DNA of 63,708 bases, counting the filler, from Jimgerdemannia flammicorona (lineage: Eukaryota), in assembly GCA_003990765.1 (NCBI GenBank). It is 2 parts of 2 records of this genome, joined end to end, with 100 filler letters (N's around TTAATTAATTAA, not from the genome) between each part and the next. Parts side by side here need not be neighbours in the genome. Positions count along the whole stretch, not along the records: positions 1 to 31,811 come from RBNJ01000378.1; 1 more part is not named here. One strand, given 5' to 3'. Of the stretch, positions 3,197 to 55,613 are shown in pieces. Made by a program: the position numbers and the translations under genes. The first letter of the stretch is position 1. Each line of letters opens with the position of its first letter. The notes beneath the pieces were generated by a model. That model saw nothing but the letters and a program-made list of their open reading frames with translations. It did no database searches and was not told where the DNA came from.

Positions 3197-3832
3197 TAGT
3201 GCTCCGAACAAGTCAATCCGGATGGGATTCGGATGGATTCGAATCCCATCCAGATGGATTCGAATCGGATTCGAATCGGATTCGAATCAACCATTGTTTT
3301 GATTTCCAAATTAGACAATTAAATGTTTACATCAATAACTTGATGAATAATCATCCAAATTTGATGATCTTGGTGTCATTTGAAAGCCCTTAATAAGGCC
3401 TTTCAAATGATACAAAGAACATTAAAATCGGATTATGTGTTGCCGAGATATTAAGGAAAACGTTCCATTTGACGAAATTTCCAAAATCGGCAAATCAAAG
3501 AATTTCCAAAATCGGCGATTCAGATGTTTTCCTTCATAACTCAGCAACACTTGTTCCGATTTCAATGTTCTTGGTATCATTAGATAGGCCTTATTAAGGG
3601 CTTTCAAATGACACCAAGATCATCAAATTTGGATGATTATTCATCAAGTTATTGATATAAACATTTAATTGTTTAATTTGGAAATCAAAACAATGGTTGA
3701 TTCGAATCCGATTCGAATCCGATTCGAATCCATCCGGATGGGATTCGAATCCCATCCGAGTTGATCCGGATGGGATTCAATCCAAATCAATCCGAATCCA
3801 ATCCAGATTAAATTGACTCATTAGGAGCACTA
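3197..3832. mobile_element. hAT-type MITE/foldback element, 636 bp
   Basis: TIRs TAGTGCTCCGAA / TTAGGAGCACTA; 8-bp TSD ATCCTACT (3189-3196) / ATCCTATT (3833-3840); empty site visible in A2 near 62544; long internal inverted repeat. Confidence 0.93.
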
Positions 3833-9345: not shown

Positions 9346-11900
9346 ACTACCTTTCTCTGGTACAATTTGCATTATACAAACTTCAAGCAATAACTTTTGA
9401 TATAACTCAGAGAAAAGGTACTAGTAATATATTATTAAGCAAGAGTTCTGATGAGCATGCTAGGTCAGATAGACCTGGGGCATTTAGCTGATAGTATGTG
9501 GGGAAAAGCTATAGCCTAAAGATGGGTGCTTTTGAAAGTGTGAATAGTGAAGAAGAATCTGGAGAGAGACTGGTGTTAGGTAGAAATAAGAGAAGGTCAG
9601 GGCCTCCAAGTTTTGCTGACAAGGTAAAGAAGATTAGATGGCTAGTGAGTACTCAGACTGGTATAGCTAAAGGGAAAGACAAGGCTAACCTAGGGAGGGC
9701 AGGGGGCCCTATGCTCAGAAGAGTGAGTGTAGAGGTAGGAGAGACTGTGGCTGAGGGCAGTAGTATGACTATTAATAGAGGTATGATGGAGAATCTAAGA
9801 AAAAAAAGAGATGTGAGAGCTGATGAGAAAGCTATGCAGGGGGACCAACAGGGGTAGAGGGATCTGGCTGATACATAGTATAACAGGTCTGGTGGTGGCT
9901 TCATTACTTAAGAAATCAATCTTAGAGTTTATAGTCACATTGTACTTCTGGGGCTTAGCAGTGATAGAAAAGATAGTACTGGGGCTGATCTCAAAGCAGA
10001 TGGCTGGAGCTATCTCAGTGAAGTTCCTGAAGAGGCTTGAGGGGGTTGAGGTGGGCTTTGAGAAGACTGCCCCCTTAGAGGAGGTGTTGAAGGCTATATT
10101 GACTATGAGAGAGGTGGTGGTCTCAATGACTTACTGTCTGAGATAGGACCCCAGAGTAGTCTAGCTATTAGTGAAGAGAGTACCTATAGTGACAATAGTT
10201 GAAACAAGAAGGAGGATGGAGGAAGTTATAGCTAAATATAGTAAGATAATTGATATTGGTTTTCAGGTCTAGGAGAGGACTTTGTTCTGAATAGGAGATA
10301 TGAATATCAGGCTTCAGCTGGCTGGAAAGAAGACTACAGAGAAGATGTAGGACTGACCCTCAGTATTAATATTGGAGAGCATTTATCTGTAAGGTAATTA
10401 GAGTAAAAGAGAGTATAGAGGAGGAGGAGGATCTGGTGAAGATACTGAAAGAGCTTAGTGAGGCAGTGAAGTGGTAGGCCAAGATATGGCAGACATATAT
10501 AGACTTAATGTACCTAGAGATAGTGGATGAAAAGTGTATTCAGATAGATAAGAGGCAGTGGGAGAGGACTCAGAGATATAAGCAACAGAAGGAGAAGATA
10601 TTACCCAGTTCTGATAAGGTCTCAGGGGGTACTCAAGAGAGTATCTGGGCAGAGAATGATGTGGGGGGAGTGTGAAGACTATGGGTGAGAGTCAGGAGGT
10701 AAGGAATCAGGCTCTCTATGATGATGGTATACTAGAGATATGGAAGGAGAGCAGGGATATAAGAGAGCAGTCTGGAGTCATATAGCTGAAGATTGGTGAG
10801 GATATAGAGTTGTTGAAGACTCACTATGTTCAATTTAGAGTATCTAAGATAGCAAGTAGGGGCAGGTGATTGAGGTTAGAGAGGATGAGTTGGTAGATAT
10901 TCCTGAGAAGGAGTGGGATAAGTCTGCAAGTGTTGGGATAGATACTATAATATGTACTAGAAGACAGCAGACCAGTAACCTCTGAGAGAAAGGTGATTAT
11001 TGATCTGCAGTAAATGTACTAGGTGGTGAACAATCTGGTAGCTAAGGAGTTGGGGGATATAGACCTGCAAGTTATTAGCAAGGAGCACTGGATAAGAGTA
11101 CTATAAGGTGATGGTGTTGTGGAGGCTCTGGAGACTGAGGTGCTGGTGGTGTTTCTGGATGAGAAAGAATATAAAATAGATGAGATGAGAGAGGCTGAGT
11201 TAGTGGTGGCTACTAGGAAGTATTCAGTCTTCTGATAGAAACAGAGATATAAACTGGAGATTTAGCAAGAGGCTTGCTTGGAGTACTAGGAGGAGATGAA
11301 GGAGAAGGATGATATAGTAATGGCCAAGCTTTTGGTTGGACTGGAGGCTAAGCAGGTTGAGGGGAAGGATACTGCTACAGAATATAGATTGGACTTAACT
11401 AGAGAGGAGCTAAATATAGAACTATAAAGAGAATATATCTATTTCAATATTATTCTCTATAAATAGTACAACTAATATTTTTTCATTAAATGTGAATAGC
11501 TTGAGGGGTTCTGGGAGATGGTATAATATTTTCTTAGTTGAAGAGATTAGAAGCTGATCTCTTTCTTCTGTAAGATGTATATTATAAGAAAAATCCAGAT
11601 CAATAAGAGTGGACAAGAGAATGGAGAGGGGCTATAGTTTGAAATAGCAAGGTTGGGCTACTGATGCAGAAAGGGTGAGGTGAAATATATAAAAGTAGAA
11701 ATTGAAGGGATTGACTAGTTTGAGATAAATGGCATCAGCTAGAGTAAGAGCTAATTGTGATTAGATCTTATTACTATCCTGTAGTTAGAAGTAAGTATTT
11801 GGAGTAAATTGATGGTCTTTTGGATAATAGGGTCTTTATAAAGACAGAAGTGAATATATTTAGAAAAGACTTCAATATGGTTTATATAGTATAGTTGGAC
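9346..11900 (+). mobile_element. Heavily decayed LINE family Y: 5' UTR, ORF1 and start of endonuclease
   Basis: Colinear with the reverse complement of ~52640-55230 (LLKKSI...VKFLKRLEGVEVGFEK; NIFSLNVN). Confidence 0.85.
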
Positions 11901-12153: not shown

Positions 12154-13234
12154 CAGCGGTTTATTGCCATGTAAAAGTATAGTCCTTATATATAAAATAC
12201 AAGATTCTAAAAGAGAAGATACACTACAATATGAGAGTAACCAAATTAGAAACCACATGACCACTGGAGATAAGCAGAGATAAAGAAAGAGCCAATCCCA
12301 GTTGCAGGATAAAAATGACAATCAAATACAAACAAAACAAATCCAAATCAAGATTAAAAATATCTGCAGACTCCAAAGGAGTAAGTATGAGTAAGGGGTG
12401 AGGCCAAAACAGAGTGAGCTGCAGTAAGCCTGAGTGAAGTAAGAGACCAAAGGCAGTAGAGGAGAGTAGAGTGAAGGCCAAGACCCTGGAGTGAGCATGA
12501 GACCCTAGAGAGGGTAAGGATGTTTTTAATCCTCTCTGGAAGAACTGGAGGCACTAGAAGGTAATGAAAATGCAAAGTGAGAGTGATGGATTAAAGAAGA
12601 AACAGAAGAAAGACATGATCTAGCAATCAGAGAGCACCAAGGAAGAGATGAAAGTCTATAACATGAAAGAGAAGAGCACAGAACAGTATTAGGGCATTAT
12701 GTGACCCAACAAGCATGATCAAATAGTATGATGAGAATCAGGAGTGGAAAAGAAGAGAGAGTATAGAGTGAGTAAGAAGGGAGAGAGGGAAGGAAAGGGG
12801 GGTAAAGAAGAGATAGAAGAGAAGAGTAAATAATAAACCATTCAACAGAAGCAAGTAGATCATGAATAATAGAAATAGGATAAGTATGGCAATAGACCAT
12901 GAAATTGCTGAGAACCTGAACTGCAGAAACCCAGTCAGAATGACAGAAGCAGTAAAGTATAAGATGACAAACCTCACTATGAATACATTCAAGAAGAATA
13001 TGATGAGAATGATTGGAACAAAAGTCAGAGGACTGTTGAGAATAGGGAAAGCAAGAATAAACAATAGTTCAGAAGAGAGAAAGAGAAATAGAAAGGTCCA
13101 AAAAGAGAATACTAATTGTACTACACACCTAGTGCTCCAAATAAGTCTATTTGAATTAAATCTGAATTTGATTCATCACATGATTATTTGATCTGAATCT
13201 CAAATCTAAAGTAATTCAAATCAACTCAGATTAA

Positions 13235-13520
13235 TCCAAATCACTCCATCCAAATCACTACATCCAAATCACCCATCTGAATCACCCTATCTGAATTACT
13301 CCATCTGAACTACTCAATCTAAACCACTCAATCCAAATTACTCAATCCAAATCACTCAATCCAAATTACTTAATCCAAATCACTCAATCCAAATCACTCA
13401 ATCCAAATCATCTAATTCAAATCCTTCAATTTGAATTCTCTGATTTGAATCCTTCAATCTGAATCCTCATCTAAATCCTTCAACTGAATTCTCTAATCTG
13501 AATTCTCCAATCTGAATCCT
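13235..13520. repeat. 14-bp subterminal tandem repeat (AATCACTCAATCCA-like) of the hAT left end
   Basis: About 20 diverged copies; resembles a deaminated form of the ATCCGAATC motifs in the MITEs. Confidence 0.85.
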
Positions 13521-13689
13521 CTATATAACTTATATGTCAGACACATTCATATATATAATACATACACATGCAAAATATATGCATACACACACAAACATAC
13601 AAATATACATATCAACAGATCAGACTTCAACAGTTTACAGTACTAATAATAATTCAAGTCAAATATCAATGATAGTTCCATACCTTCTA

Positions 13690-14290: not shown

Positions 14291-14655
14291 TTTAAATATA
14301 TATATTTATAAAGAGCTCAATAATTTAATCTCACATTCAATAAGCAGAATTTGGTAAGAAAAATTTCATTTATAATTGATATATAGATATTATAATAACT
14401 CTTATTTCTATCTCTCTCTGATCCTTTAAATACTTAGGGAAATAAGGTATTACTTAGGGACTTAGTACACAATGTATACTAAGAAGCCTTTAGTTTGAGG
14501 AAGTGCTTGCTTAAAAGTAGTTGTAGCAGCAGTATCTTATCTTTCAAAAGTCTTTCTGGTTTGCCCTACCTATCAAGAGTCTTATTCTTTGCTGTGTACA
14601 GACTGAATTTACTTTGGAATTCAGGTTCAATGAATTTACTTAAGTCTTTTATGAT

Positions 14656-15846
14656 CACTACCTTACCAGTCACAATGGTTTGGTAGGCCACAGGCAATAT
14701 GGGCAACATGGGCAACATGGGCAATATAGGCAACATGGGCAAGATGGTAAGACAGGCAAGATGGCAAGATGGCAAGATGGGCAATATGGGCAAGACGGGC
14801 AGATATGTAGCAAGATAGGTGAGGTGATATGGGCAAAATGGGCAACACAGGCAATATGGGCAACATGGGCAACATGGGCAATACAGGCAACATGGGCAAC
14901 ATGGGTGGGCAAGACAGGTAAGATGGGCGAGACAGGCAAGATGGCAAGATGACAAGATGGGCAATATGGGCAAAATAGGCAAGATGGGTAAGATGGGCAA
15001 GATGGGCAAGACAGGCAAGATGGCAAGATGGCAACATGGGCAATATGGGCAAGATGGGCAGATAGCAAGATAGGTGACATAGGCAAAATAGGCAACACAG
15101 GCAACATGGGCAATATGGGCAACATGGGCAATATAGGCAATATGGGTAACATGGGCGGGCAAGACAGGTAAGATGGGCAAGATAGGCAAGATGGCAAGAT
15201 GACAAGATGGGCAATATGGGCAAGATGAGCAAGATAGGCAAGATGGGTAAGATGGGCAAAATGGGCAAGATGGATAAGATGGACAAGACAGGCAAGACAG
15301 GCAAGATAGGCAAGATGAGCAAGATGGGCAAGATGGGCAAAATGGGCAAGATAGGCAAGACAGACAAGATGGGCAAGATGGGCAAGATGGGCAAGATGGG
15401 CAAGACAGGCAAGACAGGCAAGACAGGCAAGACAGGCAAGACAGGCAAGACAGGCAAGACAGGCAAGACAGGCAAGACAGGCAAGATGGGCAAGATGGGT
15501 AAGATAGCAAGACAGCAAGATGGGTGACATGGGCAAGATAGGCAGATGGCAAGATAGGCAATATGGGCAAGATGGGCAAAATGGGCAAAACAGGCAAAAC
15601 AGGCAAAACAGGCAACATGGGCAACATGGGCAATATGGGGGAGCAACACAGACAATATGAGCAATATGAGTGGGTAAGATAGGCAAGATGGACAAGATGG
15701 CAAGATGGGCAACATGGGCAAGATGGGCAGATGGTAAGATAGGCAACATGGGCAAGATGGGCAAAACAGGCAAAACAGGCAACATGGGCAACATGGGCAA
15801 TATGGGCAACATGGATAATGGGCAATACAGGCAACATGGGGGGGAG
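14656..15846. mobile_element. Unclassified TIR-less insertion filled with a 9-bp minisatellite, 15-bp TSD
   Basis: Flanked by TAAGTCTTTTATGAT (14641-14655) and TAAGTCTTTTGTGAT (15847-15861); single-copy site in the other B LTRs; left end hairpin CTACCTTACCA-GTCACAA-TGGTTTGGTAG; right end G-run then AG. Confidence 0.8.
14691..15840. repeat. Minisatellite of 9-bp (some 8-bp) units GGCAAGATG/GGCAACATG/GGCAAGACA
   Basis: More than 100 tandem units visible directly. Confidence 0.97.
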
Positions 15847-16414
15847 TAAGTCTTTTGTGATTTGTATACTGGGCTCAGTTCTGGCAGAAGTTAGCTAGGC
15901 TCCTGGAGTTTAGTCAGAAATATTAGAGTCACTTAGATATTATTACTAAGACTCAGAGAAATGTGTATATGTGTGGTGGAAACTTGATTCTTATATCAAG
16001 AACTGAACTAAAACTGCTTTATTTCAGATAGAAACTGGGGGGTATTTATACAAGTTAGTCTATGATTTCTGACTAAGTATGAGTGACTAATTTGGTAACT
16101 ATAGTGACATTTGTGATTATAACCTTTATCAGGTTGTTTGTGACAAAAAACACTTTATGATCAGGATCTTAATTACTAGACAATGATCAGCTGCTATGGT
16201 AATAGATGCTATAGTACCAATTGTCAGAAATAAGCTAGATATCATTTTTCATGTCATTTCATATTATTTGTCTATTGTTTGTAATATCATATGTCATGCT
16301 TGATCATATGATATCATCACTTACTGGATTATATGATCACTTATCACATCTTGTCTATTTACTTATTCATTCTATTACATTCTTTCCTCCTTAGAAATTA
16401 ACATCCTCATTAAT

Positions 16415-25887: not shown

Positions 25888-26191
25888 AGTTAGTTGAAGG
25901 GTTCTACTTATATATGTTATGTGATGTTAGTAGTGATTTGTGGTTAGTTGATATTGTATTAGATAGTTTGTAATAAAGGAGTCCAAGTGACTAAAAAAAA
26001 AAAAAAAAAAAAAAAAAAACGATAACCTCACAGCAAAACCATTTGGAGTGAGCTAAGCCACATGGACATCACTTCATGAAAAGTAACACGTTTTCAAGTT
26101 TTCACTTCGTTTATACTGGTGTACAAGGTGCAGCAGAAGTCTGGCAACAGTTCACAATAAGTTTCATTGAAATCCATCAAGTTTTCATGAT

Positions 26192-31811: not shown

Positions 31812-31911
31812 NNNNNNNNNNNNNNNNNNNNNNNNNNNNNNNNNNNNNNNNNNNNTTAATTAATTAANNNNNNNNNNNNNNNNNNNNNNNNNNNNNNNNN
31901 NNNNNNNNNNN
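31812..31911. other. Assembly gap/linker: N44-TTAATTAATTAA-N44
   Basis: Symmetric 100-bp spacer whose 12-mer has stop codons in all six frames. Confidence 0.97.
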
Positions 31912-32090
31912 ATATTAAAGCTAGTGGACTTTAATCTCAGTACTAAAGTAGAGTGCCAGTGAGGAATGAGTCAGGATTTATAGCCAGTAAGGTGGCAGAT
32001 AGCTGGGATTAGTGAGGAGTGAGACAGGGTAAGCATCTGGTCCTAGAGTACAGAGATATAGAGATAGTGAGACATTCATGCCTCTTTCTC

Positions 32091-32577
32091 TGCTACCTTA
32101 TCAGTCACAATAGTTTGGTAGGCAATCATCCAAGTCCACTTTCCACAATTATTATCCCCTCTACCTCAGGTTGGTTTGCTGTACCTGTTGCAGAGCAGTG
32201 AGAGGGAGGCAATGGTGATGAGTTGTCTCTTTATCAGTATCAGATTGGTGTCTTCTCCACTTTTTTGCAGTTCTGGTACCTTCAGCTACATCTGAAGTAT
32301 ATCTGTTTTGGTGTAGTGCCTTCTTCCTTTTGCTGTTACCAATAAGGTATTGTCTCAGTATATCACAGACTACATAGAGAGTCAGCCAATCTTGGGCATC
32401 AAGTGCTCAGTGTAGGTTACCTGCAGGTTCTCAGTACCTGTAGTGGGGCCCTCTGGCTTTGGTGAGCTTTCCAGTGAGTGCAGTTCTGGTATATGTGACT
32501 GTTTTTCAGATATTATTGGATGGAAGGAGAGATGGCCATCACAGATAGGAGGAAGGGCAATAATGGTGAACCAGTAG
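32091..32577. mobile_element. Probable second member of the hairpin-ended element family, different interior, truncated at the B LTR
   Basis: TGCTACCTTATCAGTCACAATAGTTTGGTAGGC (32091-32123) matches 14656-14688. Confidence 0.55.
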
Positions 32578-33364
32578 TATAATAACTCTCACTTCTACCC
32601 CTCTCTTATCCTTTGGATAATTAGAGAAGTGGACTATTACTTAGTGACTTAGTATACAATGTGTACCAAGAAGCCTTCAGTTTGAGGAAGCACTCACTTG
32701 TAAGTAATTGTAGCAGCAGTGCCTTCTGTTTCAAAGGTCTTTCTCTTGTACTCTATTTTGAGGGTCTTGTTCTTTGCTGTGTACAGACTGAATTTGCCTT
32801 GGAATTCAGGTTCAATGGGTTTACTTAAGTCTTTGGAGATTTATATACCAGTCTCAGTTCTGGCAGAAGTTAGCTAGGCTTCTGGAGTTTAGTCAGAAAC
32901 ACTAGAGTCACTTATATATTATTACTAAGACTCAGGGGAATGTGTGTGTATAGGGGGGGACTTGATTCTTATATTAAGGACTGAACTAAAACTGCTTTAT
33001 TTTGGATGAAAACTGGGGGGTATTTATACAAGTTGGTCTGTAATTTCTGACTAAGTATGAGTAACTAATTTGGTAACTATAATGAGGTTTGTGATCATGA
33101 TCTTTATCAGGTAGTTTTTGGCAAAAAACACTTTATAATCAGGACCTCAATTACTAGGCAATAATCAGCTACTGTGATAACTATTGCTGCAGTGCCAATT
33201 GTTGGGGATAAGCTGAATATTATTTTTTGTATTGTTTCACATTATTCATCATTTGTAATTCATATATTACACTTCATTCATATGATGACGTCATCATCAC
33301 CAGGTCACATGATCACTTGTCTCATCATGTCCCATCTGTTCACTTACTTGTTCATTCTATTATA
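32578..33364 (-). repeat. 3' LTR of Gypsy-B2 (787 bp)
   Basis: TATAATAACTCTC...CTATTATA; PPT AAGGAGGGGAAGGA (minus, 33365-33378). Confidence 0.93.
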
Positions 33365-37800: not shown

Positions 37801-40800
37801 TACAGATGAAGTAGGTGTTTCCCTTTTTTCAAGAGAGTCTCTTCATTTGAATGACAGAGATGATTTCAATTCCTTAGTGGTTGGTACCTTCCTGGGGTGT
37901 CAGGGTGATCTTTCTGCCTTCATGGGTCAGGTTAACCTCATTGGTTCTCCAGTTGATGTCTGGGTTATGCTGGGTCAACCAGGCTTTTCCTAAGATAATA
38001 TCTTGTCCTGGGAGGTCTATAATGCTAAAGTCCAACTTCTCTTAATATTTACCAATCTTGAGCAAGAGGTCCTCATAGATCTTGGTCAATGGTGCAGTTT
38101 TTCCATCACTAAAGGTAACACTTCTTTTCTCAGTGGCTGGCCTGCTTCAGGCTCCAATCCTCTTGGTGGTCTTGGTGCTGATGTAGTTTCCAGTAGCACT
38201 GCTATCAAGCAAAACATTGACATTCTGTCTGTGGACTTGGCCTGTGAACTTGATGCAACTGTCCTCCTTCTTGATGGTATTGAGCTCTTCATCTTCATTG
38301 TTGTCCCAATTGCTGTCAGTCTCCTCAAAGTTAGTTTCTCCCCATCCTTCACAAGGAGGGTTGTCTTGTTTGGGTTCCTCAGTCTGTTGAGCATGGTATT
38401 TCTCAGATTGAATTTTGAAAACTTTGGAGAGGCATGCATGGCATTCACCAATATATTCCATACAGTATATTTGAATAGAATGAGAGCATTGTCCACATAG
38501 TGCATAACCATCTGCAATTCTCTTATACCAGTTTTCATCATCTTCCTTTATGGTAGTGATCTTTTGACTGAGAGGTTTGTTGGTAGATCCAAACTCTTTC
38601 TTGCCACAGTCTGTCTGGGAGAGTTTGGGGACTTCTTCAATGGTGAGATCTTGATGGATTTCTTCAATGATTGCTTGGGCAATTCTCTGGCCTGTTTTGA
38701 CTTCAAATGATGTATCTCCAAAATTTTACAAGATGACATAGATTTTGCTAGTAAATTCTTGATCAATTACTCCTCCTCCTAGCCAAATGTTGAACTCTTT
38801 GGCTAAGCTGCTTCACTTAGCAAGGCAAATGTATGTACTTTTGAGAGCTTGCATTGCAATTTCTATTCACACTGTAGCATTGGTACTTGGTAGAATGGTG
38901 AGGTCTTGACTGCTGTAGAGGTCATATCCAGCATCAGTTGGGTGGGTCTTAGTGGGGATGGTAGACTTGTACCATATCTTCTATACTTTGATGACATTCT
39001 CAGAGTTCTTCTTTTCTGGACCTTCTCCAATAACAGTAATGTTCTGGTTACTGGGTTCACCTGATCTGTTTCTCTTCTCAGGGCATTTCACTGAGATGTG
39101 TCCTGCCTTCTTGTAGATGAAGCACAATCCTTTTTCATGAAGCTGCTTCTTTTCATCCTTGGTGGAAGGTCTGGGTCCTCTGGGGTTTTGCTGGTTCCTT
39201 TGATCATTCCTTTGATCATATCTTTGGTTATTCCTTCTGGTAGGATTCCTCCTATCTTGGTTATCCTTCTTGTGTTCTTGATTTCATGGGGCTTGTGTAG
39301 CAAGAATTTCATGGGCTCTTCTTTGTACTTGGGCAAAGCACTATGAGTAGTGGGGGCATCCTTGGAGAAGACCTTGTTCCTTGATCTTCTGGGTGAGCCA
39401 GTCTGGTAGGGCTGCAAAAAGATATTTGGCTCTGGTATCATTGATGGCCAAATTGTTTTCCTGGTAGGTAAGTCCAATGGATTTGAGGTAGGCATCCATT
39501 CTGGTAGCAAAGGTCTCTAGATCCTCTTCACCATTCTTGTGGAACTTCATCTGGGAAAGCTTGTTCCAAGTTTCTTATATGTAGGCCACATTTCAGAATT
39601 TAGTCAGTAGCAAGGCCTTGAGTCCTGGGCCTGCTTCATAGTCATCCCAACATGGTCTATTGTTGGCAGGTACTTGTCCATTGACTTGAGGGTGGGCTTC
39701 TCAGGTTACTGGATGTTGTTCCAAGATTTGCCAGAATTTGGCTGCTATTCCAGTGAAGAATGTAGCTACTGTTTCTACTTGTGCTGCTGATGTGATAAAT
39801 AGTTGTTGAAGGGTGCTGTTCTGATTGTTGGTGAGCATTTCTATAGGCACTTAGTTATCATTCCATTGGTTTGCTTGGTAGTCTGTATCAACTGCATTGA
39901 TGAAGTTTTTGATGTCACTGTTTTTTCTACTGAATATTGGGATTCACAAGGTCTTGATTGGCTTGTTCTGTTCAGCAATCTGTCCTACTATCTCTGCTAG
40001 TGCTGCTAGCTGGGTAGTCAGTACTGCAATGTTGACATCTACCATTGTGTTGACTATTGGTGGTGGGCTTGTTGGGGTAGATTCTCCTGAAGATTGTTCT
40101 GCTTGGTGGAGTTGTAGTGCTATATGACCTGGGGTTACTTGGTTTCTGGAGATCAAGTCAAAGAGTCCTGTGATAGAGGGTAAACCAAATCTCTGTATAG
40201 GTGGCTGGGTTGGTTCTGGGGTCTGATCTTCTTGACCTGTGGTTCCTTGATAAATTCCTAGGCTTGCTGTTTCTAGTTGGCTATCATTAGACTGGTAACC
40301 TGTAGAGTCTTCATCTGACTCCCTTCCCTGATGAGATAGTGCATCCTCATACTGACTAGGTCCTTCAAAGAGGATATCAGTCTCTGGCTGAGTAGATGGG
40401 CCTGCTCCTTGTTCAGCAGTAGGGGATGGTTGGCCTGCTTGCTCATTCTCGTACCTAGTTATGGCAGAGGTGTAGTATACAACTAGCCTGTAGTAGAGGG
40501 AGGTCTTGGTAGGGGTATGATGATATCTGTCAGAGGCAATCTACTTGGCAGCTACTTCTCTTGCAGCAGGGGGTGTGATATAATCTAGAAAATCCTGAGT
40601 AGCTACAGCAGTAGATTCTGGGGTCCTAGTGGTTCCAATATATTCTCAGAGGAGTTCATAGAATCTACAGTGGCTGACAATATTCCTAAGTCCTGGGTGG
40701 TATGTCCTAAAGGCCTGGTATAGATCCTTGTAAGCCTGGTCAATTACAAACTAGTGGGTTCTTGGGTCTGTGGTTTCCTGGTACTACCTGGTCCTAATGG

Positions 40801-49260: not shown

Positions 49261-49441
49261 TTCTTGGCTGGTAATCTGCTGCTACTAAGTTGTAATAACT
49301 CTCACTTCTACCCCTCTCTTATCCTTTAGATAATTAGGGAAGTGGACTATTTTTTTTTGTTTTTTATAGTCTCTTGGACTCCATCTTTATTACCAGTCTA
49401 TGAATAAGTATACAATAGCACCACCCTCTACCCTATCCCCC

Positions 49442-52400
49442 TCAGGGGACCCCTCCCCACCTTTTCATGTGTAAAGACCACCCTCTCACCAACAACTCCA
49501 ACTCTTCCACCACTCTGACCACAGATTTTCACCACCAAGCAGTACCTCTGACCCCCCTGCAGCCCCCAACCAAGCCACCAGCCTGTCAAGGTATCCTCCA
49601 TAAGGCACTACCACCATGATAACTGGCTCCCCAAGCTCTGTCACCTCTCCTCCTCAAATACAAATAGCCAGTGACTGGCCAGCCCAACCCAAATAGTCAA
49701 TGCCTAGCCGAGAGTAATCCACTCCTCCCCTACCCCTCCTATCAATCAATCCCTCAGGTCTTCCCACCTCCCCCATACATCATCACCCCTACGCCTTACC
49801 CCCAAGCGGTTCCCAATAGTCTGCCAAAAATCGCCCAACACCTCACACTCCCCAAGCCAATGTTCTGGCATCTGTACAAATCCCCCTTCCTGCCCTACAT
49901 TATGGCACTCCTTGCAGTCAAAGCAGCCCCCTACAATGAGGTGTCCCGAGCAGAAGTTAAGCATCACATTCCTCCTCAGCACATACCACCAGACTACCCA
50001 GTACTTTGGTGGCATCCAATTTTTCACTGTGGCACTCCAGGTCCAAACCTCCGGCCAGTCCCACTCCTCACCAATTCCAACTCCTTGCTAACCACTAGGC
50101 CACAGATCCTGGCCTGGTCCCCTTTGGCATTTAATTCCATCACCAATGTTGAACTTCAGTAAAGGCATGCCTCCCAGAAGAATACTGTCCCATCTCCACA
50201 TTGCCGGGCCCCAAGCCCTCTCCCCCTCATCCCCTTGCCAGCAAATATCAATGTGGTGTGCCCCCTTGGCTATCCCCCACCAGAAGCCTTTATATCGCAG
50301 TTGCCCAGTGTTCTGAAGCCCAACTAATGAAAGAAGATCACCAGTCAAGCCTCTTGGTGATGTCCACCTCTCTCATACCTTCTGCAGCAAGGGAACCCAG
50401 CCCCCTCCAAACAACTCCACCGCCCTCCTAAGCCACCATGCCCTCAAGTAGTGTAGTCTTTTGGGGAAGTCCACCAGCCCAAGACCACCTCTCGCCACCA
50501 GTAGGGACAGTGTTTCCCAACAAATCTGACTCCGTCTGCCAGCCCAAATCCATCCCTTGGCCACCTTCACCAATCGCTTCACCACCCAGGCTGGGAAGTC
50601 CAGATGATAAGCCAAATACCACAGTTTTGGCAGCCAGTATACATTCAAAATCGAGATCCTTCCTTCCAGAGAGAAGTGTCTTCCCCCCCAACCCTGCAGG
50701 ACCTCCTCCAAAATTCCAATCCTCTGCTCCCACCACAGCCTAGGCAGAACAGACCCATAGACCGACAAATATATACCCAAGTACTGCACTGCCTCTCCAG
50801 TGGGGACAATTGTTCCAATAACCTCTCCGCCCACCAGTCTGTTGCCCAGCACCATCGTTTCACACTTGTGCCAATTCAGCTTCACCCCAGAGTTCTCCTC
50901 ATACCACTCCACTGTCTTCTTGAGCTCCTCAACATCCACAGTTACTCCCAAACCAACCACCATGTCATCAGCAAAGGCTCCAACTTTCCAGCCAATTCCA
51001 TAGATAGAAAGCCCCACAATCCTCTGCTGAATTCGGTCCATTAGAGGCTCCAAGGAAAGTGCATACAAAATGGGGGACAGTGGGTCCCCCTGGGGCACTC
51101 CCCTACCTAGAGGGAATGCTACCCCTCTATGCCCATTATACACAAGCGCAGCCCTACTCCTTTCCAGTAGGCTGACCATCGCCACCCGAAATGGGACCAG
51201 AACCCCAATCCTATCCAACACTTTTGCCAGCCAGACTCGCTGCACCCAGTCATAAGCCTTCTCCTGGTCCAAGAAGACAAGATGCCCATCCAGTCCACAG
51301 GCTCGAGCACCTTCAATAACTCCATATACCCAGGCCATGCTATCTCGAATAAGCTGACCCCCTATGAAGCCCCTCTGCTCAACACCCACAATTTGCTGGG
51401 CCACCTTCTGCAGCCTTGCGACCACCACCTTAGTCACCAACTTTCTGTCCATATCTAGCAACATTATCGGCCACCAGTTCTTCCAATCCTCTCACCTTCC
51501 CTTGTTCTTATAAAGCAGTATCACCAGCCCAAGATCCTGCTCCCCCACCCATCTCCCTGACTGCAATATGGAGTCACACAGTGCCGTCAACTCTCCCAAT
51601 ATGCCCAGGACTCCAACCATTCACTTCCAGAAGTCCCAGGGGAGGCCATCCTCCCCAGGTGCCATACCCAAGGCTGTCGTGGCAAGAACCTGGTGGATCT
51701 CATCCTCCTTTACAGGCATCACCAGGTCACCTAATCCCTCAGCTCATGGAGGGTGCCAATCTTCTAATGTTTGGTCAATGTCTGTAGCATCCACCCCACC
51801 CTCCTCCTTACTCCACAATCTACTCCATCATGCCTTCAGCATTCCAAGGATATCCTGTATACCATGCACTAGTCTACTATCTGAGTCAAGTACCCCTTCC
51901 CACTGCTGCTGTACCCTTCTCACTCAAAGTGTCCTCATAAGAAACTTGGAAGGCCTCTCCCCTTCCTCTAGCCCCTGCCAATGAAGCCATGCCACCAGGC
52001 CTTGCACCCTTGACTCTTCCTCTTCCCTCAGCACCTGTTGTAGTTCCCCAACCTCCATCTTCACCCTTGTTATTCTCCAATCCTCTTCTCCCTCCACTAT
52101 TGCTAGACTCGCCCACTCCTCCAGAAGCCTAGCCAATCTAGTAGAAGCCCAATGCACTCTCTGCCTTCACTGCCTCCCAGCCACTCTGCCAGCCTCGCTC
52201 CAATACATCCTGGCCATCTCTTTCATCCTCCTCCACCGAACCCCAATTGTAGCCCCTTCCTGCCACCAATTCACCACCTTCATCTGAATGTCCTTTACCC
52301 ACTCCTCCCACTGGGACTCATCATCCAATAAGGAGGAATTCAGGTGCCAATGTCCAGGCCCATCACCACTTCCCCCAAAACACCCCTGTCTCAAAAGGCC

Positions 52401-53084
52401 CCAGTGGTCTGACCATGGACACTAGTCTACCTCTAGCACCTTCCAAACATCGCGGCTCCAATAGTCTGCCATCAGAATCCAGTCAACCCTTGTCCCCAGA
52501 CCTCCAGCCCAATGCGTATATACCCTCCAATCCCCCCAGTACTTCCTATCAGCATCTACCATCACTCCTAGCCTTTCGACCTCCTCCCACATCACCAGCC
52601 CCCCACTCCTGCTCTCAGCACCCCATCCTCCATCAGTTCTATCCAGCCGTACATCCCGAACCATATTTAAATCTCCTCCAAGTATATCCAACCCAGCTTC
52701 AGCAAGGATCCCACTCTCCAGAAGACCTTTCACCCAATCCACATGCTCCCCCCACACAGCAGGGCAGTAACAGGAGCCAACTGTAACTGGCTCCCAATCT
52801 GCACAAATCCACTCACCCCAGACCAGTCTCTCCCCCCAGCTCCTCACATCCTATATCTCTCCTCTGCCTTTCCGAACCAGAATCCCGACCTTGCTGTTCC
52901 AAATCGCTATGCCACCCCATTCCTTAGTCCATTCCATCCTATTAGAATCATCCTCGCACCTGACATCCTGCAAGAGGAAGAGATCAGCCTCCAATCCCTT
53001 CAACCAAATAAAAATGTTCCTGCATCTAACTACACCCCTAAGCCCATTCACGTTCAAAGAAAAAATGTTGGTTGTACTATTCAT
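49442..53084 (-). pseudogene. LINE Y ORF2 (EN-RT-Cys/His motif)
   Basis: NVNGL, GGDLN, RVDW; DQEKAYD, QGDPLSP, FADD, YLG; CFDCKEC...PEHWLGEC. Confidence 0.93.
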
Positions 53085-53114
53085 AATGAAATATAGTTTG
53101 TTTGCAATCAATTC

Positions 53115-55145
53115 CTACTGCTCCATGTCCATCTCCTCCTGTGCCATGTCCAGATTATGTTCAGCCATCACCTCCTCCTCTTCAGCCCTCTGAGCCTCCA
53201 GTCCAGCCAACAGTTCATTCATCTCCTCATCAGCCTTCTCCTCAAACTCCTCTCTGTACTCGATGCAAGCCTCCTGCCAAAGCTGCAACCCATGATGCCT
53301 GTTCCAACAGTACTCAGCCTTCTCCCCAGTGACAACTGCCAACTCTACCTCCCTCTCCTTGTCCACCTCATACCCTTCCTCCTCCAGATACACCATGAGA
53401 ATTTCCACCTTCAGTGCCATTGCCACTCCTTCCCCCTGCAAAATTCTTGCTCAGTACTCATCACCCATCCCACACAAGTCCACCTCTCCCAGCTCTTCTG
53501 CTGCCAGGTTGTTCATCATCTGGCACATCCAAAGCAGGTTCCCCACCTTCTTCCCACTAGGGGTCACCGGCCTCCCTCCGTCCAGCATCGTGGTGTCAGC
53601 TCCAGCACTCACATCCTCATCCCACACCTCCGGGACATCCACCAGTTCCTCCTCTCCGGCCGCCACTACCTGGTCCCCATCGATTACCTCTGGAACACTG
53701 AATTTTACCTGCTGGGTCCCCAGCATCATCATGTCCTCCCCAGATTTGTTCCTGGAAGCCGGGCCATGCCTGATAAGAGGAGAAGGGGAGGGGGAGTTCT
53801 CCCAGACCTCCTCCCAAACCTCCAAGGTGTCATCCACATATGGGTTGCTAATCGTCACCTCTTTCGCCTTCCCTGTCTTTACCCCATCCTTCCCACTCCT
53901 CTCACCAGCCCAGACACTCACTCCAGCCCCTTCTGCACCCATCTTCATGCTCGCATCCTTCTGTGGTCTACCCCCCAGTTTAGCCAGCAGATCCTTCTGC
54001 CTCTTCCGCCCCTGAGCCCTTTCCCACTGCACCCTGTCCACTCGAATCCTCCTTCCATCCACTACCTCCAGGTGTGTTGACTCCTCAAAAGTCTTCCAGA
54101 CCTTGGCATGCTATTCCACAGCTCCATCCAGCTCCTCCAGCACTTCTAGTAAATTCTCCTCCTCTTCTTCACTTCCTTTCACCTGCATCACCTTGCACAG
54201 GAATGCACCCCAAACCATTGCCGAAGGCCAGTCCCTCATCTTCCCAGTAGCCTCTTTTCCGGCCAGCTGAATTCTCACATCTACGTCCCCAGTCCTGAGT
54301 GTGGTCCCTTCTCAGACCCTGAATCTGATATCCACCACCTCACTGTACTCCGCCATGATATCCTCCACTCTCTTCCTTGCCTCCATCACCGTTACTGTGG
54401 GGACTCCTTTCACCAGCAGTTGGACCACCCTCAGATCCCATTTCAAATACCTCGCCATTGGAACACGCACCTCCCCAACCACCAACCCAACCCTCAGTGC
54501 CTCCTCCAGCAGTTCGACCTTCTCAAAACCCACCTCCACCCCCTCCAGTCTCTTCAGGAACTTTACCGAAGCCGCTCCAGCCACCTGCTTAGCGATAAGC
54601 CCCAATACCATTTTTGCCGTCACTGTTAAGCTCCGGAAACACAGCGTGACTGCAAATGCCGAGATCGACTTCTTGAGTAACAGAGCCACTGCCAGTCCCG
54701 TTACACCATCCGCCAGGTCCCCGGGCCTCATGCCCTTCTCACCACTCAGCTCACCATCAGCAGTCCTATCTAGATTTTTTTCCAGATCACCCGTCACACC
54801 CCCATCAGCAGTCTCCGCCCCAGCTGCTACCCTCCCAGCTCCACCCCTATGGCCCTCCAGAGAGGTACCCCCAAGAGGTTGCTGCCTGGTAGCCTTCACT
54901 GGTACCTTCCCCCCTCACAGCCAGCTCTCTAGTCCAGCCCCTTGCTGACCCCCCTTCACCTTCTCTGCAAAGCTCACCCTGCCAGACCCTTGACCTCCAG
55001 CTCTGCCCCCTCCTCCACTGTGGCCTCCTGCCAGCAGGCCCCTCATACTTCCCCCCAAGCCAGGGCCTCTCCCCACTTGCTGCCATTCAAATGCTCCAGG
55101 GCCACCCTGCCCAGTACGCACCTCTGGATGCTCGTTGGTTGCCAT
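53115..55145 (-). pseudogene. LINE Y ORF1
   Basis: Fragments 54915-55145 (MATNEHPE), 54312-54899, 53451-54062, 53115-53441. Confidence 0.87.
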
Positions 55146-55613
55146 AATACTAGTAGCTTTTCTCCAGAAACTGTATCAAAAGTGTTGCCAAAGATTGTGT
55201 AACCTGAATGTTACCAGAGAAAGATGAATATTTCATGTGTGAGGGAAGTGGACTATTACTTAGGGACTTAGTACACAATGTGTACCAAGAAGCCTTCAGT
55301 TTGAGAAAGTGCTTGCTTATAAGTAGTTATAGCAGCAGTGCCTTCTGTTTTAAAAGTCTTTCTCTTTTGCCGTATTTCAAGGGTCTTGTTCTTTGCTGTA
55401 CACAGACTGAATTCACCTTGGAATTCAGGTTCAATGGGTTTACTTAAGTTTTTGGGGATTTATATACCAGTCTCAGTTCTGGCAGAAGTTAGCTAGGCTT
55501 CTGGAGTTTAGTCAGAAATACTAGAGTCACTTAGATGTCATTACTAAGACTCAGGGGAATGTGTGTGTGTGTGGGGGACTTGATTCTTGTATCAAGGACT
55601 GTACTAAAACTGC

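Follow-up and report, generated by a model that had tools for sequence, protein, structure and literature searches.

A minisatellite-bearing retroposon family with interchangeable 5' heads in the fungus Jimgerdemannia flammicorona

Non-coding retroposons organized around a VNTR have been described as the SVA, LAVA, PVA, and FVA elements. The passages cited here treat these VNTR composites as hominoid-specific, with repeat units of 30-50 bp (PMC4432496), and report that they gained new 5' ends through splicing (PMC6139936). A second relevant phenomenon is the production by therian L1 of tailless retropseudogenes that carry target-site duplications (TSDs) and are 3'-truncated, which the consulted part of one study ascribes to internal priming, and which includes doubly 5'- and 3'-truncated examples (PMC5322556). 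Bipartite non-autonomous LINEs are described, in the sections cited, for the RTE, Ingi, Vingi, and R2 clades (PMC5786205), and the TSD-flanked MINE chimeras of Magnaporthe are ascribed, in the text cited, to template switching during LINE reverse transcription (PMC2104539). Other non-autonomous retroposons of non-animal hosts, according to the portions of the reports cited, are thought to rely on LINEs, including Sadhu of Arabidopsis (PMC2848041) and Eg-R1 of Blumeria (PMC6022647); part of a further paper provides context alongside these (PMC13174262). Literature searches over the main texts of a limited collection of papers listed no fungal VNTR-composite retroposon.

The DNA analysed here, termed "the window," is a stretch of 63,708 nucleotides from J. 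flammicorona. The fungal nature of the genome is borne out by 88 Zn2Cys6 matches above the Pfam cut-off, compared with none in 14 control genomes. It contains an insert that combines a short unique segment with a G-rich array and that ends without a tail. With considerable confidence, we interpret this insert as one copy, truncated at both its 5' and its 3' end, of a non-coding poly(A) retroposon of several hundred copies, likely copied in trans by the proteins of an L1-type LINE and likely primed within its VNTR.

An insertion in a host LTR and the family behind it

The insert occupies positions 14656-15846 (1191 bp) and is bounded by a 15-bp direct repeat with one mismatch (Table 1). Because the homologous site is present only once in three more host-LTR copies of the window (at 32826, 41184, and 55445), the segment represents an insertion. 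A preliminary description of this DNA had proposed that the segment arrived as one unit and that the site is single in the other three LTRs. Both proposals hold, although the empty sites differ from the TSD at two or three positions.

The insert consists of a 33-bp unique piece followed by an array of 9-bp repeats, which TRF places at 14693-15814 with 127 copies, in agreement with the repeat body noted previously. The array carries the ordered 8-, 9-, and 13-bp unit types of its family, and one internal block (~232 bp) is duplicated. CpG depletion is strong in the repeats of the window in general. The stem-loop once given as 33 bp does exist, but it spans 29 bp (14658-14686), and 33 bp is the length of the whole head remnant. 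Compared with shuffles, its folding yields z values of -1.75 to -2.5, with 4-13 of 200 shuffles folding equally well; the hairpin is weakly supported. Terminal inverted repeats (TIRs) and poly(A) are absent from the window copy, and no inverted repeat of at least 40 nt was found linking the insert ends.

Table 1 Positions of the insert, its host LTR, and related elements in the window
Feature	Position	Strand	Remarks
Left target-site duplication	14641..14655	+	15 bp, or 14 bp with its initial T assigned to the element side
Head A remnant, positions 12-44 of the 44-nt head	14656..14688	+	First 11 nt absent
G-rich 9-bp VNTR of the window copy	14689..15846	+	Without tail, without poly(A)
Right target-site duplication	15847..15861	+	Its opening AAG is also how the repeat unit would have continued (microhomology of 3 nt)
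Host LTR	14388..16379	.	~800 bp minus insert; LTR-retrotransposon family
Family S, 5' part	32080..32577	+	Starts with head A; interrupted by LTR; on the other contig, past 31812-31911
Full-length L1-type LINE	49356..55227	-	16-bp TSD; 5' end 78% to head B, remotely head A
Decayed LINE 5' UTR	9347..9430	+	86% identity to head B
5' UTR of another LINE	26020..26110	+	~85% identity over 33 nt to head D

Several other features of the window were recorded. Fragments of dUTPase lie within LTR-retrotransposon sequence (1731-2177 and 38150-38725). A 14-bp minisatellite occupies 13217-13523, with the host LTR starting ~900 bp downstream of it. Units of 11-14 bp related to this minisatellite occur at 139-197 and within a 227-bp inverted repeat located at 3235-3752. 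Positions 31812-31911 are a short AT-only spacer flanked by two N runs, beyond which lies the other contig (C379).

The 81-bp left junction of the insert, used as a genome query (138 candidates, 40 scored), produced 49 matches including itself, most of which start at the insert edge. The 48 further matches to the 5' end bear out the suggestion that the unit is mobile and non-autonomous. Searching from the insert edge, as had been recommended, recovers other copies; a search with the fully CpG-restored head, in the form of a 26-mer, gave no exact match.

Neither the hairpin nor the "G-run then AG" at the opposite side, previously taken as the two ends of the element, is a terminus. Among the 30 loci read, most relatives have a pyrimidine-rich start that lies 11 nt upstream of the insert edge, and in several the 5' truncation falls elsewhere. 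Past the array, most continue through a ~250-bp unique tail to AATAAA and poly(A). Hence, the reported lack of TIRs and poly(A) is correct for the window copy, but the lack of poly(A) does not extend to its complete relatives. A complete copy comprises a head (44 nt in the head A form), the 9-bp VNTR, the tail, AATAAA, and poly(A). VNTR length is about 0.3-1.6 kb across the family (319-1543 bp measured).

The terminal 18-mer of the tail has 204 exact matches in the genome (control, 0), and 29 of 30 sampled matches are located downstream of a VNTR. A younger subfamily with a variant tail end (144 head candidates) escapes this 18-mer. Together, these counts suggest a family of several hundred copies. 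From 391 fetched loci, a sample biased by the use of heads and tail as search seeds, 173 unique arrays were parsed; the tail is present in 149 and absent from 14, and 10 reach a contig edge. Tail pieces adjacent to VNTR sequence are also present in low-depth contigs of four public sequencing runs, and a 39-nt tail pattern matched no metagenome contigs.

Tail-bearing copies in which both flanks are readable (n = 96) could be tested for TSDs. These were found in 55 copies, versus 0 of 192 mismatched (shuffled) flank pairs, and 41 copies have no TSD at the threshold used. The TSDs are 11-20 bp with a mode of 16 bp and mostly open at a pyrimidine-purine step, a pattern of the type produced by target-primed reverse transcription (TPRT), which the preliminary description had suspected from the window TSD. 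Additional bases lie between TSD and head in 22 of 27 full-head copies. Of 132 tail-bearing arrays, 116 have a called A-run, which in a few cases is as short as 3-6 nt.

The family therefore has the features by which non-LTR retroposons are recognized: dispersed copies, variable TSDs of ~10-20 bp, poly(A) after a signal, and variable 5' truncation. Although it was earlier regarded as a mobile satellite belonging to no family that could be named, it can be placed as a non-autonomous poly(A) non-LTR retroposon, whose heads stem partly from the 5' ends of L1-type LINEs and partly from further retroposons without coding capacity.

Other classes of element were considered and rejected. MITEs and other DDE transposons have terminal inverted repeats and short TSDs of fixed length; the window copy has no TIR, full copies of the family terminate in poly(A), and the TSDs are 11-20 bp. 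Helitrons insert without a TSD and carry a 3' subterminal hairpin, whereas a TSD exists here and, read on the sense strand, the hairpin lies close to the 5' end. A Pol III SINE with a tRNA-, 5S-, or 7SL-derived head was not supported by ARAGORN, which found no genes in eight loci, or by Rfam, which gave no matches at E<=1 in four. The repeat was judged non-coding because of its frame-breaking units and stops (22 of 107 unit spacings are not multiples of 3, and each sense frame has 11-15 stops), which also rules out a collagen-like coding reading. Three antisense open frames have no Pfam match.

L1-type LINEs are abundant in this genome, in which an RT query produced 16,094 candidates. Their ORF2 includes APE and RT domains and matches entries for LINE-1 ORF2 in the PDB (best E 4e-18), and their TSDs of 15-16 bp match the size of those of the family. 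The full-length LINE in the window is a candidate for the kind of element that mobilizes it. Non-LTR elements are often nested in or located beside the 5' ends or poly(A) tails of other elements, both in the window (49356-55227, 25972-26019, and 9347) and in many fetched loci.

The missing tail of the window copy

The array of the window copy halts about 220-230 bp short of the usual array end (224 bp is the median for the 15 best matches); therefore, ~470 bp plus the poly(A) are missing. Its terminal G-run and AG are a mutated internal repeat unit. The AAG due next in the repeat unit coincides with the AAG that opens the right TSD, and the two preceding bases are unaccounted for. Thus, the odd ends of this copy are the result of 5' and 3' truncation.

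Similar 3' ends recur in the family. Five of the 14 tail-absent arrays end within the VNTR right on the TSD (the window copy, L030, L353, L381, and L390). One further copy stops within the tail, and four stop just past AATAAA without poly(A). The remaining tail-absent arrays were cut by a later insertion, have a premature poly(A) (L003) or a different tail (L008), or could not be assigned. In L003, the poly(A) lies inside the VNTR, and the copy has a perfect 14-bp TSD and one additional G at its 5' junction. L008 (G000:C11392), a single copy, consists of head A and VNTR followed by a LINE-like 3' end in place of the family tail, and so represents a tail swap.

According to the origin that we propose, Pol II would transcribe a master copy, starting at a promoter located within the LINE-derived head, and the transcript would be polyadenylated after AATAAA. 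A LINE ORF2 protein would then nick the target at a pyrimidine-purine step and reverse-transcribe the RNA in place, an event expected to leave a TSD of ~16 bp, frequent 5' truncation, and a few additional 5' bases, as the hallmarks observed in the family suggest. In the case of the window copy, the 3' end of the target would have paired with the AAG of a repeat unit, so that ~470 nt and the poly(A) remained uncopied, and synthesis would have halted 11 nt before the 5' end. The window copy was likely primed inside the VNTR instead of on poly(A): the 3' truncation and TSD that mark internal priming are both seen, although the complementarity consists of just AAG and a deletion would give the same junction.

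Such a deletion is the best-surviving alternative. A normal full-tail copy could have been inserted by poly(A)-primed TPRT, after which a deletion between the AAG in the VNTR and the AAG that opens the right TSD would have removed the 3'-terminal ~470 bp together with the poly(A). This event would yield an identical junction, and VNTRs have clearly been remodeled at the DNA level, given array lengths of 319-1543 bp and the duplicated block in the window copy. However, one endpoint of the deletion would have to coincide precisely with the border of the TSD, and such a geometry is also seen in four more VNTR-ending copies, in the tail-internal copy, and in the four copies that end just after AATAAA. 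Priming is the simpler explanation of these ends, and we regard later deletion as improbable.

Interchangeable heads and a constant body

The module formed by VNTR and tail is joined to at least eight heads, with junctions fixed within each subfamily. Among the 173 arrays, head A is found in 46, B in 40, E in 36, D in 12, and F in three, and heads C, G, and H in two each; 27 arrays have no head or another one, and three reach an edge. Three heads are derived from LINEs. Head B corresponds to the initial ~65 nt of LINE 5' UTRs (89-94% identity), with RT downstream in five of five fetched. Head D is the initial ~47 nt of a second LINE group, and of 30 matches to its motif, 24 run on into LINE sequence and six into VNTR. 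Head F matches the 5' end of a third LINE. Head G is the start of family U, a 1.16-kb non-coding poly(A) retroposon, and head C corresponds to an antisense segment of the 1.17-kb non-coding poly(A) retroposon termed family S. No parent was found for head H or for head E, for which 20 of 20 matches are VNTR-linked.

Head A is shared with the start of family S (4047 candidates). A 19-mer of head A has 615 exact matches, of which 27 of 30 sampled belong to family S, and none of these 30 is a LINE that itself begins with head A. Three matches that might have placed head A before a third body are one VNTR copy, one family S copy, and one that is unexplained. Alignments of head A to the family U head and to the 5'-terminal sequence of the LINE at position 55225 were equaled by 0 of 1000 shuffles each, and alignment to the 5' end of LINE B by 1 of 1000. 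Two other LINE ends did not match head A (419 and 267 of 1000 shuffles), nor did head E. The likeness is therefore significant in two of the four LINE ends compared, and head A is a putative homologue of a LINE 5' end, remote and diverged.

Further observations concern the elements that share these heads. The head E subfamily (L358, L377, L385, and L391) is the least CpG-decayed and has its own tail variant and a ~200-nt head, in which an intron-like GT...AG stretch of ~55 nt was recognized by eye. This subfamily could be either the most recent form or the founding one. Family S (in the window and at L061-L080 and L189-L218) has TSDs and forms two subfamilies that differ in the head loop. In family U (L334-L351 and L315; 147 candidates), approximately the first 40 nt resemble head A and the 5' end of LINE D.

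The parents of heads A, B, and D show no GT donor where the junctions lie. This absence, coupled with the fixed junctions, favors template switching or recombination over splicing as the way in which heads were gained, and each fusion would then have been amplified as a subfamily. On a tail tree, heads group together, with 25 changes versus a shuffled mean of 50.8 (0 of 200 shuffles); the tree itself is weak, with 6 of 100 branches starred and just eight CpG columns masked. A small tail insertion is common to all seven F, G, and H copies, and a 10-nt tail deletion is present in 32 of 33 scored B copies and 28 of 34 scored A copies. Because head A accounts for 15 changes on the tree and six of its 34 scored copies have the other tail form, the subfamilies are not clean clades.

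The LINE origin of heads B, D, and F could also point to a bipartite LINE with an internal deletion as the nature of the family, in which a 5' UTR and a 3' end were retained, the repeat expanded between them, and the LINE-derived tail is what is recognized. The last ~40 nt of the tail do resemble LINE 3' ends by eye, and L008 ends like a LINE. However, none of 30 sampled tail-end matches lies in a LINE, none of 30 LINE RT loci matches the tail, and the best tail-versus-LINE-end score among 15 comparisons was reached by 9 of 400 shuffles. A LINE 3' end is thus unsupported as the source of the tail by all three comparisons. The heads, moreover, are many and interchangeable, and we consider a bipartite LINE very unlikely. 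Because the tail has no recognizable LINE 3' end, the RNA of the family, read as a retroposon with acquired heads, is likely recognized through its poly(A).

Unit arrays are ordered and vary in length between copies, with units of 8-13 bp. Canonical G-quadruplex motifs are predicted at 5-17 per least-decayed array, and one is predicted in the window copy.

Family S heads likewise have a predicted stem-loop, equaled by 8-22 of 300 shuffles in four of five copies, and it is insignificant in LINE heads (90 and 300 of 300 shuffles) and in family U (165 of 300). With no compensatory change evident by eye, the hairpin was rejected as a conserved functional element. Another reading is a mobile satellite of an unplaced class that lacks poly(A), has a hairpin as its working end, and depends on an HUH enzyme, a recombinase, or a transposase instead of a LINE. 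This reading would account for the missing poly(A) of the window copy and for the family S stem-loops, but it is scarcely credible given that the hairpin is internal in complete copies and lacking from other heads, and that AATAAA, poly(A), 5' truncation at variable points, and TSDs of ~16 bp are all present in the family.

Relation to known retroposons

Taken alone, the window copy adds just a fungal case of a tailless retrocopy, and the interest of the locus rests in the family. We tentatively suggest that this family is an independent, SVA-like fungal parasite, in which a core of G-quadruplex-capable minisatellite and tail has serially stolen the 5' promoters of active LINEs and retroposons, with at least eight heads that founded subfamilies. 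If so, this family would be the first of the VNTR composites to lie outside hominoids, and it would preserve a natural record of how promoters hop. The same design reached without shared parts would mark a G-rich tandem-repeat core as a repeatable way onto L1-type machinery. Natural head swaps on one constant body also offer a test of whether the 45-80-nt 5' ends of LINEs are portable promoters, and they make the contribution of the VNTR to mobilization testable.

In its 3' end, the window copy resembles the tailless retropseudogenes of therian L1 as the cited text presents them: oligo(A) is absent, TSDs flank the copy, and the complementarity between target and RNA end is short. It differs in that the template is a VNTR retroposon, the host is a fungus, and the microhomology is just about 1-4 nt.

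As in bipartite non-autonomous LINEs and, reportedly, in NARTc/Pr77, a non-coding element here starts with the outermost 5' sequence of a LINE, closely in heads B, D, and F and remotely in head A. This LINE sequence probably serves as a Pol II promoter. The fungal family is unlike them in that its 3' part is no LINE 3' end, its body is a minisatellite, and several LINE families are donors. These donors are APE-RT L1-type LINEs, a clade outside the list given in the cited sections of PMC5786205.

The MINE elements are likewise fungal, TSD-flanked chimeras, and the text cited describes them as a non-coding 5' part joined at varied junctions to a truncated LINE 3' part. In the present family, in contrast, it is the 3' part that stays constant, this part is not LINE sequence, and the junctions are fixed and have been amplified as subfamilies. 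The cited portions of the Sadhu and Eg-R1 reports mention neither a VNTR core nor head exchange, unlike what is found in the present family.

The closest resemblance is to SVA, LAVA, PVA, and FVA. Like these, the fungal elements are non-coding and non-autonomous, have an ordered central VNTR of variable length, poly(A), and TSDs, and form subfamilies bearing newly gained 5' ends. Exon splicing is reported for SVA_F1 and the STK40 subfamily, whereas the parents of heads A, B, and D have no GT donor at the junction. L1 mobilization is proven for SVA; for the fungal family, we infer LINE mobilization, promoter activity, and template switching. Because unit size (8-13 bp versus 30-50 bp), heads (from LINE and retroposon 5' ends), and host (a fungus) differ, the family is set apart from the hominoid VNTR composites. 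The likeness is noted without a claim of homology, and it is apparently a result of convergence.
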